DNA from: Dictyostelium discoideum
Taxonomy: Eukaryota
NCBI GenBank assembly: GCA_000004695.1
Contig: CM000154.2
Span: forward strand, 1,952,001-2,016,000
DNA length: 64,000 nucleotides
Direction of reading: 5' to 3'
The translations under genes and the position numbers were made by a program. Position 1 is the stretch's first letter. Each line of letters begins with the position of its first letter. The notes beneath the pieces were generated by a model. That model made no database searches. It had not been told where the DNA came from and was given only the letters and a program-made list of their open reading frames with translations. This document shows, in pieces, positions 23,761 to 37,962 of this stretch.

Positions 23761-25234
23761 TTACTCTTCATTTGGATCTAATACAAGAGTAAATTGAGTT
23801 TGAGCATTAACTGATAATGATCTACGTCTTTCAAATGTAGTTTCTTGAAGTTTTGATAAAATTGGTAATTGAGCCATTGGCTGAGGTATATGATTTGGAT
23901 GTTGTGGTTGTACCCAAAATTGTGGTTGTGGTTGTAGTAATGGTGGTGGTTGATGATGTTGTTGTTGTTGTTGTTGAATTTGTTGTTGTTTATTTACAGA
24001 GATTGGAGAAAAGTGACCAGGTGACATTCTTTCGAAACCACCACTACTACCAGACATTTTCATCATTGAAATGATTGATGGTGGTGTATTTCTTAATGAA
24101 TTATAAGGTGAATTTTGAGCACTACCACTATTACTTCCACTACCACCAATATTGGTGTTGCTGGTAGTAGTATTGTTGTTGTTGTTTAAAAATATATCAG
24201 GTGCAGAATAAGAAAAACCTTGAAATGCCATTTGATCTTGATCAGAAAGATTTGAATTTATAGTATAAGGATTGATTGGTTGTGAATTCATTGTACAAAG
24301 TGGATCGAAATAAGATAAATCCAGTGGACCCACTAAATGAGGTTTAAAAGGTGGATCAACTTCTTTATTCAATAATTTTGACCAATTTACATTCTTAAAG
24401 AAAGGATGAGCTTTAATCTCCTCTACATCAGATTCACCAGAACCTAATCTTTTTGATGGGTCTCTATTTAAGAGTAATGAAACTAAACTTGCTGCATTTT
24501 TTGAAATTTGAGGTGGGAATTTTAAAGGTGACGAAAGGATTAACTTTGTCATTTCATGTGGATCCTCACTGTAGAATGGGGGCAACCCAGCGATCATCTC
24601 GTAGAATAGTGTGCCCAATGCCCACCAGTCCACCGATTTACTATAGCCTGTACCATTGATGATTTCAGGTGCGACATATTCGGGTGAGCCACACATTGTG
24701 TAGGTGACATGGCCCTCTTGGATACCCTCTTTACATAGGCCCAAATCCACTAAACAAATATTACCATCCAAATCCATTAACAAATTCTCTAATTTCAAAT
24801 CCCTGTAGATTACACCATGTTCATGTAGGAACCCAATGGCTAACATAATTTGACCAATATAGAATCTTGCTGTCTCCTCACTAAATGTTTCCCTTTCTGA
24901 AATGTGATAAAATAATTCACCACCACCAATGTAATCCAAAACCATACATAAACTATCTTGTGTTTGAAATGAATACTTTAATCCAACTATAAATGGATGA
25001 TAATATTTCTTTAATAATTTCCTTTCAGTAAATGTATGTCCAACTGCATTCATATTTAAACATTTATCTTTTTTTATAACTTTCATTGCATATAATCTAC
25101 CAGTATCAATTTTCTTTACTAAATTAACTTGTCCAAATGCACCTCTACCAATCATTCTTAAAAATATAAAATCATCAACTGTTACTTTTTTCTATTTTTT
25201 TTTTTTTAAAATTTTTAAAATATTAATATATATA

Positions 25235-27162: not shown

Positions 27163-28936
27163 ATGAGGTAAGTTTTATTTAAAAAATTATAATTTTATTA
27201 AAATTTAAATTAATTTAAGTTTTTTTTTTTTTTTTTATTAAATTTGATAAAATTATAGTGAAGTTGAGGAACAAACTTTAATAAAAGATGCATCAATGAA
27301 TGAACCAACAGATAAAACCACCACTGAAGGCGATAATGGTGGTGAAAATGAAAATGAAAATGAAAATATAGCAGAAGGTGGTGAAAATCAAGAAGATAAT
27401 AATAATAATAATGAGGGGGAGGAAGAAGAAGAGGAGGAAGAGGAAGAGGAGGAAGAAGAAGAGGAAGATGAAGAATCAGATGACGATGATGTTGTTGTAC
27501 TTTTAGATCAAGAAAGTGTTGAAGCATCATCGAGTAAACCTGGTGCAACATTTAGAACTACACCAAATAAATTTTCATATAGAAATCCATCATCGATTAC
27601 ACCTGGGTCAGGTGGTAAATATATGTTAACAAAACAAACACCAACAGGTGGTGGTGGTGGTGGTAGTGGTTTCAATTCAGCTAAATCAAATCAAAAAACA
27701 ATCTTTGAATTTGATATCGAATCATTTGAAGAGAAACCTTGGTTAAAACCAGGTGCTGATATTTCAGATTATTTCAATTATAATTTCACTGAAGAAACTT
27801 GGAAAGCCTATTGTGAAAGACAAAACACAATGAGAATGGAATTAAATAATTTAGGTAAAATTAAAGGCTATGAAAGTAATAAACCAAATATTGGTGGTAA
27901 TACCACTGGTGGTACTGGTGGTAATGGTATTGGTGATAAACCAAATATTACCAATGGTAATTTAGGTGTTGGTGTTGGTGGTGGTATTGGTGGTGGTAGT
28001 AGCGGTAGTGGTGGTAGTATAGTTGGTGATTTACCACCAGAGTTACAAGGTGATAAATTACAACAAGGAATTCAAAGACCACAATTTAAACGACAACCAA
28101 GTAGATCTGATATTAATGATGAATCAAATTTAGATCAACAACAACAAACTGATGGTAGATTTAATAGAGGTGGTCAACAACAAATACCTCCTCAACAACC
28201 ACAACCACAACAACAACAACAACAACCACAGCCACAACAGTATCAAACAAATTATCAAAGAGATAGAATTTATAATCAAGATTATCGTGGTAGTGGTAGA
28301 ACATATAGTACAACTAATCAATATGAGGATGATAGTAATAATAATAATAATGGTAGTGGTAGTGGTGGCGGTAGTGATAGAAGAAGAAATGAAAGTTCAT
28401 CATCATCATCAAGAGGTGATTCTGATAGGGGTGAAAGAGAAAGAGAAAGAGATAGAGATGATAGAGATAGAAGTGAAAGAGAAAGATCGGATAGAGATAG
28501 AAGTGAAAGAGAAAGATCAGACAGAAGTGAAAGAGAAAGATCAGATAGAGATAGAAGTGAAAGAGAAAGATCAGATAGAAGTGAAAGATCAGACAGAGAT
28601 AAAACAAGTAGTAGTAGTAGTAGTAGTAATAATAATAGTAGTTCATCAACAAGAGGTAGTGATAGATATGATAGAGAAAGAGGGGGTGATAGAGATAGAA
28701 CCTCTGAAAGTAGTAGTAGAGGGAGTGATAGAGATAGAGATGATTATAAAAGTAGAAGTAGTAGTAATACTGGAGGTAGCAGTAGTAGTTTAAGATCAGA
28801 CAGAGATTCAAGAACACCAAGTAATACAAGTAGTAACTACTCCTCTTCTAATCCCTCTTCTTCTTCCTCCTCCTCAGATTATAAAAGAAAGAATTATAAT
28901 ACTGACAGTAATGATAGATCAAAGAAAAGAAAATAA
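27163..28936 (+). CDS. Fip1 (pre-mRNA 3'-end processing / polyadenylation factor) with an acidic N-terminus and an RD/RS/RE-rich C-terminus, 560 aa. Exons: join(27163..27167, 27259..28936).
   Basis: Fip1 motif: [42 protein letters not shown]. The 5-nt first exon ATGAG|GTAAGT joins via ..TATAG|TGAAGTTGAG in frame, giving MSEVEEQ.... The C-terminal repeats [10 protein letters not shown] resemble those I remember from vertebrate FIP1L1. Confidence 0.8.
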
Positions 28937-29149: not shown

Positions 29150-29668
29150 TTAGTTTGTTGTTGTTGTTGTTTCTTGACCTTTTATGATTCCACCAATTCT
29201 GATATAAGTTGCTAAACCTTGAAAGCCTGTTGTTCTTTTATAGTTCTTTCTTGGTTTATGTTTAAAGATGGTTACATGTTCGGTTTTTGCTTGTTCTTCA
29301 ATATAAGCATGAACTTTGAAATTACTAATGATTGGTTTACCAATTATAGTTTCATTTTTAGTACCAACTAATAAAACTTTATCTAAAACGATATGTTCAC
29401 CAACATCAACTTGAATTTTATCAGTCATAATAATATCACCTTCTATAACTTTATATTGTTTACCTGAAATATGTACAACTGCAAATGAATCTTTACCAAT
29501 TGGTGTAAATTGATTTTTGGAATTATATGATTCTTCTGATGTTACTGCAACAGCTTCTGGAATTGATGTAAAATTTCTAAATAATAATTTATTTGTTTGT
29601 TGTTGTTGATTTCTTAATAAAATTGATGATGATGATTTCATCAAATTTGATCCAATATTTCTAATCAT
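29150..29668 (-). CDS. Mitochondrial ribosomal protein bL21 (L21 family), 172 aa.
   Basis: bL21 core: FAVVHISGKQYKVIEGDII...VGEHIVLDKVLLVG. N-terminal R/S/K-rich presequence (MIRNIGSNLMKSSSSILLRN). The track start at 29707 is TTG, so I chose ATG 29668. Confidence 0.65.
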   Translation of the reverse strand: MIRNIGSNLMKSSSSILLRNQQQQTNKLLFRNFTSIPEAVAVTSEESYNSKNQFTPIGKDSFAVVHISGKQYKVIEGDIIMTDKIQVDVGEHIVLDKVLLVGTKNETIIGKPIISNFKVHAYIEEQAKTEHVTIFKHKPRKNYKRTTGFQGLATYIRIGGIIKGQETTTTTN

Positions 29669-29738
29669 TTCTTTATTAATATATATATATTTTTTTTCAA
29701 TTTTCAACCTAAAGTAAACAATGAAAAATGAAAAATTC

Positions 29739-30433: not shown

Positions 30434-32703
30434 TTATTCATTTGATAATAAAGCAACTCTATAAAGATCCAAATAATTTCTAGCAGCAAATGAATGATTA
30501 TAAACTAAACCATTAAAAGCTTTAGTTGCATCTTTACCAATATAATCGTCAATGTATTGTTTACCACCTGGATGTTTTTCAGCAAATTCAGACATATCAT
30601 AGATAACATCTTCAATGATTAAGAGTTGTTTCTTTTCTTTTTGACATTTCTCTTTAACTTGAGCACGAGTGAATGATGGTAATTGATCCAATGGTTTACC
30701 CCAATAGAGTTGATCACGTAATTTTTTGATGGTTTTCTCTTGCATTTGAATTTTACCTTTTGCGAATAATTCACTTGGGAATCTCTTTAATTCATAGGCG
30801 AAACCAAACCAACTAAGGAAATTGATTAACCACTTACCTGGATCGTAAGCAGACATATGAATACCATTTCTGTAATCATATGGGAATTCATGATGAAAGT
30901 TATGATAACCTTCACCAAAAGTGACCAAAGATGTGATAAAAGAGTCACGTGGAGATCTTTGGTCGGTGTAAGTTGCTTCACCAAGATAATGAGCCAAAGA
31001 GTTGATACAAAAGGTACATTGCATCATGAGTACTTTGGAGGCAACACCAGCGATGAAAAATCCACCTTTCCAATCATTCCAACCAAAACCACAAATGAAC
31101 ATTGGTAAGAACCAACCCAAACTGAATGCCAATGGAATGAAATATTTATGTTGGAAACGTAAAACTGGATCAGCTTTAAGATCACTAATATCGGCATCAC
31201 CTGGAATACGTTTGAAAAGCATCCAACCCATATGGGAATAGAAAAGACCTTTCTTTACATTGTATGGATCCTTATCGGTATCAGTGAAACGATGATGGGC
31301 ACGATGATCTTGGCACCATTCGAAAACACTACCTTCAAAAGTTGATGTACCCATTAACATGAGAACTATACGAACTGGTAATGAAGCCCTATAGGAACGA
31401 TGAGAGAATAAACGATGATAACCAGCTGTAATACCCATACCAGAGATATAGTAAGCGAGGAATGCGGTAATATAGGTTTTAGTGATGAATGGAGTTGTTA
31501 AAATACCATAGAGTGCTAAAAATGGGGTACCACATAAAAAGATAGCAACATTCCAATTGATTCTTTCATGGAATGGTTTTGATGGATCAACCTTGAGCAA
31601 ACCAAATGGATGAGTTACTGGATCGAATAAATTGGAGGATGAGGTCTCATCTTGTTTCTTTTCATCCAATTCGACAGAGAGTGTAGAATTCTTTGGTTCA
31701 ACATGTTGGACAACTGGTGGTAAATTGATCAAGAGTGAAGCAAATGATAATTCAGTGATATTTTCATACTCTTTCTTTAATAAATTGTAAGCATCTTTCC
31801 ATTTGTATGATGGTACACCCAAATTTTGAGACATGTGACTCAAGGTAACACCAATGTTAAAATCTTGTGTTAAATATTGTACCCAACGTGGGAGGGCAAA
31901 GAAAGTTGGTTTACTTGCGACACTTGAGAGAGATGAAGCCTTGAGGAATGTTGACATCCAAAAGTGGTACACAAACAATGGGATCAAATAGTACTTGAAT
32001 AAACCCCAAATGCCCATACTGTAGGTCATAATTGGGAAGAATAATGCGATGAATACATAAAGGAATGAGACTGAGACCATCATTGATTTGGAGAATTTGA
32101 AACTGAAATTTAATGATAACCATTGAAGTAATGAACTGAGGAACCAAAAATTACCACTTGCAATCTCACGAACGAAATCACGACTTGCTGTTGCTTTCTT
32201 TTCAATTCTTTTCTTCCAATAGGCTAATGGATACATTAATGGTAACATACAAATTGTTCCAACTACATAGTTAACAAATTTATTCTTGAAAAATAAATCA
32301 TTACCACATGCATACCCAACAGAGAATAATCCACAACATGCTGTACCCATAAATATCCATCCAATTGGTAACAAATACCATGGAAGTGCATATACTAAAT
32401 ATGTACCAATTGTCACTAAACCAATTGATGCTAATAATTTCTTTGTTGCTGTTCTTGTACTTTTTTCAAATACCTTTAAAAAAAATAAAAAAATAAAAAA
32501 TAAAAAAAATAATTAATAAAAAAAAGTTTTTTTTTTTTTTTTTTTATATATTTCAAAAAGTTTTTATTTTTATTTGCACTTTTATTATTATTATTATTAA
32601 AATTATTATATTAATTATAAATTTTTTATTAACTTACTTCTTGTGGAAGTTTTGAGATCATTTCAATTGCCTCAGTACATGAGGTAATTGGAGATGATAT
32701 CAT
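30434..32703 (-). CDS. Δ9 acyl-CoA (stearoyl-CoA-type) desaturase fused to a C-terminal cytochrome b5 domain, preceded by a ~290-aa N-terminal membrane domain that resembles a degenerate FAD2/ω-desaturase without histidine boxes. 701 aa. Exons: complement join(32638..32703, 30434..32473).
   Basis: Δ9 desaturase His boxes: HRLFSHRSY, HRAHHRFTDTDKDPY, HNFHHEFPYDY. Cytochrome b5: EFAEKHPGGK...GKDATKAFNG. The N-terminal domain aligns to FAD2 with degenerate boxes: GTACCGLFSVGYACGNDLFF (compare HECGHHAF), NYVVGTICMLPLMYPLAYWKKRIEKKA (compare [26 protein letters not shown]), FNIGVTLSHMSQNLGVPSY (compare FHNITDTHVAHHLFSTMPHY). The track ORF start is GTG. The real exon 1 is ATGATATCATCTCC...CAAGAA|GTAAGT, followed by a 164-nt intron. 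Confidence 0.75.
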
Positions 32704-34127: not shown

Positions 34128-37100
34128 TTGGAATATTTTTGGGAAATTTTAGCTTCTTGTTATGGAACGATATCATTTATTAAATTTTTTAATATATTTT
34201 CAAATGAAATATTTTCACCAAGTGAAAATGGAGATTCAGTTTTTATAATGGTTGGAAAATTTTTTAGAAGAAAAGTAAGAGCAGAGACACATTATGATTT
34301 AATATTTTTAAAAATCATATTGGCCAACGCATCAATACCAATGATTTTAAAACTTGGAGTTAAAGATATAGGTAGATTTACAGAAAAGGAGGATATTATA
34401 GTATCATATTATAGAAACTTTTCAATAATTCATTCACTTAGATTTGATAATGTTAAAGAGTTTGCATTAGTTTATAAAACTTTAAAGAATAATTATCCAT
34501 CAAAAAAAAAAAAAAAAATTACACTTTTTGAAGAAAATGGGAAAATTAATGTTAAAACATCAAAAAAAGATTTAATGCTATTCGAATTTGTTTGTAAATT
34601 TGATTGTGTTAAAATTTTTAAGAAATATTTTTTACCAAAACCTCAAATTATTAATAATAATGATAATAATGAAATGTTAGAATGTATTAGTAGTGGATCA
34701 TATTCAGGATTTGATGAAAAGAGTAAACGTAAAATTAGAATTTTTTTTTCAATATGTTGCAGACAAATTTCACCTAAAATCTTAAAATGCATTGTCGATT
34801 ATGTCAAGGATGATATTGGTTTTTTAGATTTACAAAATAGGCAAGATATTTACATTGGAGATTCAGCACCTGAAAAAGTTTTATTTCTAAATTGTTTTTT
34901 TGGTAATCATAAAGAACAACGTGTTATAGATTTTTTTAATCTCCTTACATCCAAATCAATTATAATATGTAATACTATTAAAGAGAAACCGGAACTTTAT
35001 GATTATCGTTATATTACATTGTCAACTGTTGATTCTACATTTTATTTTTCTGATAGTCATAAAGGTGCTGATTTTGGTGTTTACACTGATGAGATTAATG
35101 TTATTATTAATAATGATGATATTGATTATGATTATATTGGTGATGATGATAATGATGAAGAAATAGAAGAAACAAAAGATTATGGTAGTAGTAGTAGTGA
35201 TATTGATGATTTTTATAATGTATTTGAACCAAAAGCATCAATGATACCAAATATATTGGATTCTTGTAGTTTGGAAATACTAAAAGCATATATTCAAAAT
35301 ATAACTGGAAATGGTTTATTCAAAATAAGTCCATCATTATTTTTAGCACATGATGTAACTAGATTAGTTAGAAATCCAAAACCAAAAACAGAAACTGTTG
35401 TTAAAATATTGGAATTCATTAATACAATTTCAAGACTTTCAGAATTATCAACCAACGGTGTTCCTTTCACTTTTTTAACTAATAGATTCGAAATTGTCAC
35501 TAGTATAATTATGTCATTACATGATGAACGATCTATTTCAAATTCTGTTGAACCAGTTCAATGGTTACGTGCACTTGCTCCATTTGTTTCAAATGATGAA
35601 ATGAAATTAATTATATACAAAGTTAGAACTCTTTACAACTATGAACCACATTCAAATGGTGAAATCAAATATACCGAATTAGTTAGATTATTTGATGTTC
35701 AATATCTTTTAACTAAAGGTAAATTTTCACTATCTCAATTTAATGGTTTTGAAACTTCAATTTTTTTAAATCCAAAATTACTTGATGGTACTATTAATTC
35801 AAATATTTTAAATTCAATGATTATTAAAGACAAAGAAAAACTAGACTTAAAAGAATTATTTTTTAAAGAAAAACCACTTTCAGAAGCTGAACTTAAAGAA
35901 AAATTTGAAATTGCTACAAAAAATGAAAAAGAGTTATTGGACCAATTAAAAAAAGAAAATGATGCTGAAAAATTAAAAAAGAAAAATAAATTAAAAAAAC
36001 AAAAAAATCAACAACAACAACAACAGGCTAAACAACAAGCTCAACAACAAAAACAACAACACCAACAAAATATTCAACAAAATTATGAAAATCAACATAT
36101 TGAAGACCAACGAAAATTTAACCAACAAACCAAAGGTCGACCTATCTCTCCTTCATCAATTCAAAACCAAAATTTAAATCCAACTTTATTACAAAATCAA
36201 AATCAAACTTCAAACCCAACACCAAATTTAGAGTCAACAAAAAAAGCAACACCGACAACAACAACAACAACAACAACAAATTCCAATACATCAGCAATTA
36301 TAAATGAAATTAAAAATCAAGATTTAAATCAACAACAAAATATAACAGAAAATATAAATGAAATATATGATGTTTCAATTGGTAAATTTAAATTTAATAA
36401 AAAAGAGTCAAATATATTGGGTAGAGGATCAAATGGTACATTAGTATTTAAAGGTATTTGGAATAATAGAATACCAGTAGCAATTAAACAAATGCAAAAG
36501 ATGTTTAACCCATTAATTAGTAAAGAAATTGAAATTTTAATTGGTTTAACCAATAAAAACTTAAATTTAGTTGGATACATTGATCAAGAAGAAGATGAAA
36601 ATTGTGTTTACCTTGGTTTAACTCTATGTGATGGTTCATTACAATCTTTATACGATCAATCAAAATTAAATGAATTTATTAATCAAAATAATAATCAAAA
36701 TAATAATAATAATAATAATAGAGTATTGGATTTAATTATTGGAATGATAAATGGTGTAATATTTTTACATGATCAAAATATAGTTCATAATGATTTAAAT
36801 CCAAGAAATATATTAGTAAAAGATAATAGATTAATAATTTCAGATTTAGGTTTAAGTAAGATGAATGTTAGTTCAACTTATAATTTCTCAACAAATGCAA
36901 TTCCAACTGGTCAAGATGGGTATCATCCTGTTGAAGTACTTTTAGAGAAAAGAAAAACTAAATCAGTTGATGTTTTTTCTTTAGGTTGTTTAATTTATTT
37001 TATAATGACAAATGGTGCTCACCCATTTGGTGATAAATTCTCAAGACTTCGTTATATCACTAAAAGCAAATACAATCTATCTCAATTATCAAATTTAAAT

Positions 37101-37336
37101 TTAGTGGCAACTCATTTAATTGAATTGATGATATCATATGATGAGAGTAAAAGACCGACCCTATCATCAGTTTTAAAACATCCTTTGTTTTGGGACAGTT
37201 TAAAGAAAATTAAGTTTTTAGAATCTTCTTTACGTTTATTGGGTGATCATGATTTTAAGAAATTCAATATCAATAAAATATTAATTAGTTGTAATAGTAA
37301 TAGTAGTAGTAGTAATAGTATTTGTAATAGTAGTAA

Positions 37337-37371
<35 letters not shown>

Positions 37372-37745
37372 GTAGTTGTAAAATTAGTAGCAGTAGTTGT
37401 TATTGTGTACCATTACCTTGGAATCAATCACTCGATTATCAATTAGTGGATTCTTTATCAAATCAAATTGAAAAAAAAGTAGCATCTTATAAATTTGATC
37501 AACTTCATGATTTAATTCGATTCATCAGAAATACTCTACAACATTATAATCAAATTTATAGAGATTTAAAACAAATTTTACCAAATAGTGATATTTTAGA
37601 GTCATTAAAATCACAACAGTCGGCTTTAAATTATTTCGAATCCAAATTTCCAACTCTAATAATTTTTTTATTTAATCATTTTAGTGCTATACCTGAAATT
37701 AAAAATTCTATCCATTTTTCAAATGATACTTGTTCAATTTTTTAA
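34128..37745 (+). CDS. IRE1-like protein: Ser/Thr kinase domain followed by a KEN (kinase-extension nuclease) RNase domain, with no ER-luminal sensor or TM segment (the irl-type IRE1-like family). The 5' end is uncertain; the first in-frame ATG is at 34248.
   Basis: Kinase: LGRGSNGTLVFKG, VAIKQM, HNDLNPRNILV (variant HRD), ISDLGLSK (variant DFG), PTGQDGYHPVE. KEN: HPLFWDSLKKIKFLESSLRLLGDH...DLIRFIRNTLQHYNQIYRDLKQILPN...YFESKFPTLIIFLFNHF (compare IRE1 DLLRALRNKKHHYRELP...YFTSRFPHLL). The track ORF start at 34128 is TTG. An acceptor-like TATTATTAG sits at 34101-34109, but no upstream coding exon was found. Confidence 0.7.
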
Positions 37746-37889: not shown

Positions 37890-37962
37890 GGTTTTATAGT
37901 GTAATTGGTTAGCACCCAGGACTTTGAATCCTGTAATCTGAGTTCGAGTCTCAGTAGAACCA
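37890..37962 (+). tRNA. tRNA-Gln (anticodon UUG).
   Basis: GGTTTTATAGTGTAATTGGTTAGCACCCAGGACTTTGAATCCTGTAATCTGAGTTCGAGTCTCAGTAGAACCA. It forms a cloverleaf with a 7-bp acceptor stem, A-box TAGTGTAATTGG, B-box GAGTTCGAGTCTC, anticodon loop CTTTGAA, and near-identity to the canonical eukaryotic tRNA-Gln(UUG) sequence as I remember it. A T-run terminator follows. Confidence 0.9.

Follow-up and report, generated by a model that had tools for sequence, protein, structure and literature searches.

Membrane desaturases govern membrane fluidity and lipid signalling, and their assembly, substrate supply and regulation in the membrane are poorly understood. A gene of Dictyostelium discoideum raises the question of whether a desaturase fold can be kept next to an active desaturase after its own catalytic ability is gone, and what it would then be kept for. 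The gene lies on the minus strand at 32703..30434 of a 64,000-nucleotide (nt) stretch of contig CM000154.2 (assembly GCA_000004695.1, positions 1,952,001 to 2,016,000), which is called the window here and from whose first letter all coordinates are counted. An earlier note on this DNA had proposed that the gene encodes a catalytically dead desaturase fold fused to an active-looking Δ9 desaturase with a cytochrome b5 domain. The homology of the N-terminal domain, the loss of its iron ligands, the continuous open reading frame (ORF) and the finding of the same architecture elsewhere all bear out that proposal. We put at roughly 80% the probability that the Δ9 enzyme of this gene shares its polypeptide with a pseudo-desaturase domain that is conserved and non-catalytic.

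The gene and its C-terminal part

The gene has two exons, and its spliced product of 701 amino acids (aa) is identical at every residue to D. discoideum AX4 XP_636528.1/Q54IE9, which is annotated as "delta 9 fatty acid desaturase". Orthologues of Q54IE9 in D. citrinum, D. dimigraforme and D. firmibasis are 698–707 aa long. The second exon, which had been noticed as a reverse-strand frame open for 679 codons, agrees with the annotated gene. The chance of an open frame of this length is about 6e-29 at the base composition of the window (21.8% GC); the coding sequence (CDS) of the desaturase has 35% GC.

The C-terminal part of the protein is what had been expected, an ordinary Δ9 desaturase followed by cytochrome b5. 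Pfam recognizes FA_desaturase (PF00487) at residues 359–566 (E 3.6e-15) and Cyt-b5 (PF00173) at residues 624–696 (E 1.4e-17). All three histidine (His) boxes of the Δ9 domain are intact (HRLFSH, 375–380; HRAHH, 412–416; HNFHH, 546–550), and the haem motif HPGG of the cytochrome b5 domain is found at 656–659. In Foldseek searches, the predicted structure of this part matched human and mouse SCD1 and cytochrome b5 structures, with the Δ9 domain aligning to SCD1 4zyo at E 1.1e-14, 34% identity and a TM-score on the target of 0.77. Residues 326–701 are assigned on these matches to an OLE1-type Δ9 desaturase plus cytochrome b5, an ordinary arrangement familiar from fungi. From the homology and the database name we infer a Δ9 regiospecific activity on 16:0- and 18:0-CoA. 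The likeness to OLE1-type fungal Δ9 desaturases (FD-A cluster, PMC5037126) lies in the domain order, the intact His boxes and the HPGG motif; the Dictyostelium protein differs from these enzymes by some 300 additional N-terminal residues, which would make up a second, iron-less desaturase fold.

Homology and fold of the N-terminal domain

The N-terminal part shows highly significant similarity to desaturases of the Δ12/ω type. Searched with residues 1–307, phmmer retrieved intact desaturases of 348–458 aa at E-values of 1e-30 to 1e-33, and a BLASTP alignment of the N-terminal domain with an intact enzyme (P0002) covered 289 aa at 32% identity (E 2e-45). When 1.84 billion representative proteins were searched exhaustively with this domain, 200 matched at E<=1e-3, of which 76 reached E<=1e-10; a word-indexed homologue search with the N-terminal part returned 4–5 proteins only, with a profile included. 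Pfam FA_desaturase stayed below its threshold on the N-terminal part (residues 54–110, E 3.2, 7.9 bits versus a cut-off of 29.7), and the NCBIfam DesA model reached 23 bits versus a cut-off of 500. The curated profiles neither confirm nor refute an N-terminal desaturase domain, and it is phmmer, BLASTP and the predicted structure that carry the case.

The intact relatives of the domain have the boxes HDC(G/A)H, HxxHH and H(V/I)PHH, and plant-type FAD6 sequences are among them. Judged by these alignments, residues 23–270 are homologous to the plastid and cyanobacterial ω6 (FAD6/DesA-type) desaturases. The earlier description of the N-terminal ~290 aa as desaturase-like is upheld, but the label "FAD2-like" that went with it is not, because the relatives have HDCGH or HDCAH and not HECGHH; FAD6/DesA-like is the better term. 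These closest active relatives share about 30–32% identity and the same fold with the N-terminal domain, as well as the motifs PWYLLP..W, VG.I..LPL.YP...W, WGL.K(Y/F)(Y/W)L.P...YHFWMSTF, YP.W.E.L..D.N and (V/I)PSYN. Unlike them, the domain is without HDC(G/A)H, HxxHH, HVPHH and LVHHT, has two segments deleted, has no transit peptide and is covalently joined to another desaturase.

Prediction of the structure, which the earlier note had suggested as a check, points the same way. An AlphaFold2 model of residues 23–288, built on an alignment of 41 family members, has a mean predicted local distance difference test score (pLDDT) of 91.3 and a predicted template modelling score (pTM) of 0.88, and in this model the N-terminal domain keeps the membrane desaturase fold. 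In a model of the whole exon 2 product, the two membrane domains and cytochrome b5 are folded and residues 274–316 are disordered; pLDDT falls below 50 in the linker, at residues 252–294 of the exon 2 model.

Loss of the histidine boxes

In the D. discoideum N-terminal domain, HDCGH of box 1, HDVHH of box 2 and HVPHH of box 3 have become YACGN, RIEKK and GVTLSH, respectively. An alignment anchored on a hidden Markov model leaves one of the eight canonical iron-binding His, in box 3, and only four His in total are present in residues 1–310. The extra motif LVHHT is deleted, and a further deletion of about 20 residues follows box 2 relative to the active enzymes. The replacement of all three boxes had been claimed before and holds, with a correction to box 3, where the register given earlier (SHMSQ) was a few residues off.

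The lost ligands have not been exchanged for others in any regular way. Box 1 varies between species (YACGN, YACRN, KDCNQ, NDCAN, RDCSQ), and in the His-depleted fusions the boxes have Y, K, N, R or L at the first position and N, Q, S or R at the last, none of which are metal ligands. The box-1 Cys is invariant (16 of 16 aligned domains) and is conserved in the dead domains together with transmembrane and amphipathic motifs. Since the replacements are variable and not of ligand type while the Cys and the hydrophobic motifs are kept, no substitute metal site is apparent and it is the scaffold that appears to be conserved. On this evidence the N-terminal domain is predicted to be unable to bind the canonical di-iron centre, which would make it a pseudoenzyme.

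One polypeptide or two

If the dead domain and the Δ9 enzyme were made as separate proteins, the architecture could be an artefact of annotation or expression, arising from an internal promoter or from proteolytic cleavage of the linker. The linker is indeed disordered and poorly conserved, and so is compatible with cleavage after translation. Against this, both desaturase domains lie within one exon with no stop between them, and the stretch between residues 236 and 368 is free of Met; by residue 368, the chain has already passed the first Δ9 transmembrane helices. GC content is 0.30–0.42 through the linker region (0.33–0.39 in the linker, like the rest of the CDS) and only 0.02–0.09 in the intron and flanks. 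Without a Met in the 236–368 stretch or an AT-rich break, the Δ9 enzyme is unlikely to be made on its own.

Proteins from other organisms argue in the same direction. A fusion of similar length and with the same order of domains is present in at least eight named species. It is seen in Polysphondylium violaceum (KAF2076011, 755 aa), in transcripts of Physarum polycephalum (740 aa) and Stenamoeba stenopodia (a Trinity transcript, 705 aa), and in two proteins (708 and 709 aa) of Willaertia magna, which we take to be a heterolobosean and so outside the Amoebozoa. A further Trinity transcript of 834 aa carries both domains, so that single transcripts with both are at hand at 705, 740 and 834 aa, and more than 12 metagenomic ORFs have the dead domain-Δ9 architecture. 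The question of whether other amoebozoan Δ9 desaturases have the N-terminal extension, which the earlier note had raised, is answered by Polysphondylium, Physarum and Stenamoeba, and the architecture recurs in Dictyostelia, Myxogastria, Discosea and Heterolobosea. On the continuous ORF, the absence of a Met or an AT-rich break, and the shared architecture across species, a merged-gene artefact was rejected as the main explanation of the locus, and we regard the production of two separate proteins as improbable.

Conservation of the dead domain

Selection was judged from amino-acid identity per domain, with the linker serving as a neutral neighbour. Between D. discoideum and D. citrinum, D. dimigraforme and D. 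firmibasis, identity is 97–99% in the dead domain, 95–97% in the Δ9 domain, 92–94% in cytochrome b5 and 84–94% in the linker. With respect to the distant fusions the corresponding values are 31–48%, 47–70%, 36–55% and 6–25%. A neutral relic would resemble the linker, and because the dead domain is conserved far beyond it, the domain appears to be maintained by strong purifying selection at the amino-acid level.

This comparison speaks against the possibility that the N-terminal domain is a decaying remnant of an ancient Δ12-Δ9 fusion that is merely tolerated. Such decay might be read from the loss of all metal ligands but one, from the two segments deleted relative to active enzymes and from the His counts among fusions (8, 6, 4, 3, 2, 1 and 0), which resemble a progressive series. 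However, in close species the dead domain is conserved as much as the catalytic domain or more, it has kept its distant identity across Amoebozoa and Heterolobosea where the linker has drifted, its predicted fold is very confident, and the dead form is re-used on other enzymes. The suggestion that the domain is a relic of a gene fusion is therefore acceptable as to its origin but not as to its present state, and neutral decay is a quite improbable account of it. A cryptic enzyme that uses a non-canonical metal site for some oxidative modification of lipids is the least credible alternative of all. The fold and many motifs flanking the tunnel are indeed kept (among them the box-1 Cys, YHFW(M)STF and (V/I)PSYN), and the relatives that retain six of the eight His (Stenamoeba, P0058, P0049) could have activity. 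The D. discoideum domain, however, has lost seven of its eight canonical ligands along with LVHHT, and the residues now in their place (Y, N, I, K, A, G, S) are not of a metal-binding kind and vary from species to species. We know of no membrane desaturase that is active without its His boxes.

Family members and fusion partners

The number of canonical His retained in the N-terminal domain differs among fusions to Δ9 desaturase (with or without cytochrome b5). Counts of 0–1 were found in D. discoideum, P0177, P0021, Willaertia, Physarum and others, and counts of 2–4 in P. violaceum (P0038), P0068 and P0123. Six His are present in Stenamoeba (P0035/P0174), P0058 and P0049, where boxes 1 and 2 are intact and box 3 reads (L/Q)(I/V)PHY, and all eight in P0166 only, a fusion that has no b5 domain. 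Fusions with 6 or 8 His may be genuinely bifunctional tandem desaturases.

Related dead domains are also joined to other proteins. In P0030 one is followed by cytochrome b5 and a front-end desaturase in a single ORF of 682 aa, and in an unrelated, GC-rich eukaryotic contig from a metagenome (L001:145-2877) the exons of a dead FAD6-like domain join in frame with those of cytochrome b5 and a front-end desaturase. This front-end partner has QIEHH as its third box and differs from the Δ9-b5 partner in Dictyostelium. The intron of the contig falls after ELPQE and that of D. discoideum after KLPQE, at the same codon position; the shared position (L001:280-560 and 32630-32703 in the window) suggests an old common gene structure of the dead-domain family. 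Elsewhere the dead domain is N-terminal to an FAE1-type 3-ketoacyl-CoA synthase (KCS; P0085), to an SAT/FAS-type acyltransferase (P0045) and to DUF6962 (P0090), and in P0036 it occurs with cytochrome b5 alone. The partners identified are all, by their sequence assignments, enzymes or proteins that act on acyl chains.

A rough neighbour-joining tree, in which deep support is weak and which serves as a guide only, united 20 dead domains, every partner type among them, in a single clade (58% bootstrap). A second clade (76%) held the Physarum/P. violaceum type and a third (86%) the 6-His type, and P0166 was located among other active enzymes (78%), which suggests that its fusion was a separate event. 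The P. violaceum fusion P0038 clusters with Physarum and not with the D. discoideum type (76% bootstrap, in this rough tree), and dictyostelids may carry two paralogous fusion genes.

A possible role for the dead domain

The product of this gene would be one polypeptide of the endoplasmic reticulum (ER) membrane with three folded parts, namely a FAD6/DesA-like pseudoenzyme, an OLE1-type Δ9 acyl-CoA desaturase and cytochrome b5 as electron donor. It probably originated as a tandem of an ω6/Δ12-type and a Δ9 desaturase that shared one b5. That members with six or all eight His persist is in line with such an origin, with the reservation that the one 8-His fusion looks separate. After catalysis had been lost, the first domain would have been kept for a non-catalytic job, in which it retains its membrane-embedded body for binding acyl chains or lipids and stays tethered to the catalytic domain as a partner. 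As a built-in pseudo-dimer or a lipid-binding scaffold, it could hold or present the acyl substrate or product, or it could stabilize or regulate the Δ9 domain in the ER membrane.

An acyl- or lipid-binding or scaffold role is favoured because the dead fold is also found on acyl-handling proteins that are not desaturases and because an iron-free relative is reported to hold a fatty acid. That relative, FAD6a, is FAD6-like and belongs to the Orf2971/Ycf2-FtsHi import motor of Chlamydomonas; its His boxes are reported to be only partly conserved and to show no iron density (bioRxiv 10.1101/2024.09.02.610899). Its tunnel holds a fatty-acid-like density, and it is a structural subunit of the complex (bioRxiv 10.1101/2024.09.02.610899), so it provides a precedent for a non-catalytic desaturase fold that has no iron and yet keeps hold of an acyl chain. 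The chain deposited as "FADL" in PDB 8xks is taken to be the FAD6a of the preprint. The N-terminal domain of D. discoideum has only 18–21% identity to it (8xks_K/8xqw_M), and it differs from the Chlamydomonas protein in that the latter, besides its partly conserved boxes, is a separate polypeptide of a plastid protein-import complex, lies outside the ER and has no active desaturase joined to it.

A second likeness is to the FAD2-FAD3 heterodimers, which are described as channelling substrate (Lou et al. 2014, as cited in PMC6314118). There, two neighbouring desaturase folds in the ER membrane hand intermediates over to each other, and the amoebal fusion would be the covalent counterpart of this arrangement. 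However, both partners of the heterodimer are active and held non-covalently, whereas in the fusion one is dead and contact between the domains is only proposed. Drawing on these analogies, we offer the specific acyl-binding or scaffold role as a tentative proposal.

Several points have to be set against this interpretation as a whole. Many of the family members are ORFs from metagenomes or transcriptomes, and the phylogeny depends on a rough neighbour-joining tree in which the main dead clade has 58% support. The model of the whole exon 2 product has a pTM of 0.54 with a disordered linker, so the contact between dead and active domains remains a proposal. The fusions to partners other than desaturases speak against a strictly homotypic pseudo-dimer, and a purely homotypic role was down-weighted for this reason. 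Lipid profiles give a further point. D. discoideum is not known to make linoleate. Its reported dienes are the 5,9- and 5,11-dienes, and linoleate is abundant in Physarum (review, PMC11900508). The profile of D. discoideum is compatible with an absence of Δ12 activity from this gene, but Physarum makes linoleate and yet its fusion is also dead. Loss of Δ12 chemistry in the organism is thus not simply mirrored by the state of the domain.

A broader possibility, which we regard as doubtful at present, is that the iron-less FAD6-like fold is a mobile accessory module of protist lipid metabolism that has so far gone unrecognised, a membrane-embedded acyl or lipid binder placed at the N-terminus of varied acyl-modifying enzymes. 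Such a module would feed, accept or sense lipid substrates for Δ9-b5, for a b5-front-end desaturase, for an FAE1-type synthase and for an FAS/PKS-type acyltransferase. If this were true, the implication would be wider than one gene, and the Δ9 desaturase of D. discoideum would be a genetically tractable representative of the module.

Relation to previous work

The annotated gene and its standard OLE1-type Δ9-b5 part are already known. Our literature search found no description of an N-terminal pseudo-desaturase domain or of such a tandem desaturase fusion. A proteomics paper on D. discoideum mentions an "SCD", and of this protein it refers to the cytochrome b5 domain alone (PMC6830349). The main sequence-network survey of desaturases kept only sequences of 350–550 aa (Li et al. 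2016, PMC5037126), and proteins of the 701-aa type were outside it by design because of this limit. The miss by Pfam, combined with the 550-aa limit of the survey, makes the architecture invisible in standard domain tables, which amounts to a blind spot of annotation.

A tethered dead desaturase fold would offer a direct handle on lipid binding and on dimer-like scaffolding or channelling. The dead domain is conserved across Dictyostelium, Physarum and Willaertia, occurs again on further enzymes of lipid metabolism, and is present in a genetically tractable model. The range of His counts among the fusions recovered could provide material for studying the change from enzyme to pseudoenzyme.

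Features of the gene and its neighbours

Positions of the parts of the desaturase gene are listed in Table 1.

Table 1. Parts of the two-exon desaturase gene, with positions in the window and residues of the 701-aa product
Feature	Position	Strand	Remarks
Exon 1, codons 1–22, peptide MISSPITSCTEAIEMISKLPQE	32638..32703	-	ATG, GTAAGT donor; spliced product = XP_636528.1
Intron, 164 nt, GTAAGT...AAAG, 6–9% GC	32474..32637	-	
Exon 2, 679 codons plus TAA	30434..32473	-	
Pseudo-desaturase domain, residues 23–270, FAD6/DesA-like membrane desaturase fold (predicted) without di-iron site	31730..32473	-	
Former His box 1, YACGN, residues 76–80, replaces HDCGH	32300..32314	-	
Former His box 2 region, KRIEKK, residues 110–115, replaces (L)HDVHH	32195..32212	-	
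Former His box 3, GVTLSH, residues 230–235, replaces HVPHH	31835..31852	-	Retained (V/I)PSYN motif next
Inter-domain linker, residues 271–325, in frame, no Met, no stop, predicted disordered	31565..31729	-	
Δ9 acyl-CoA desaturase domain, residues 326–600, His boxes intact	30740..31564	-	Pfam PF00487, Foldseek
Cytochrome b5 domain, C-terminal, residues 624–696	30452..30670	-	Pfam PF00173, Foldseek
Stop codon TAA	30434..30436	-	

Directly downstream of the desaturase gene, at 29150-29707 (-), is an ORF of 185 aa that resembles mitochondrial ribosomal protein L21, and beyond it lie a 546-aa low-complexity protein with E/D/R/S repeats at 27296-28936 (+) and an ORF for a Ser/Thr kinase of the AGC type at 23761-25155 (-). 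On its other side the gene is adjoined, at 34128-37745 (+), by an ORF of 1205 aa with a protein kinase domain and then a KEN/RNase-like tail (IRE1/RNase L-like motifs). The sole tRNA found in the window, a tRNA-Gln (UUG), is located at 37890-37962 (+).

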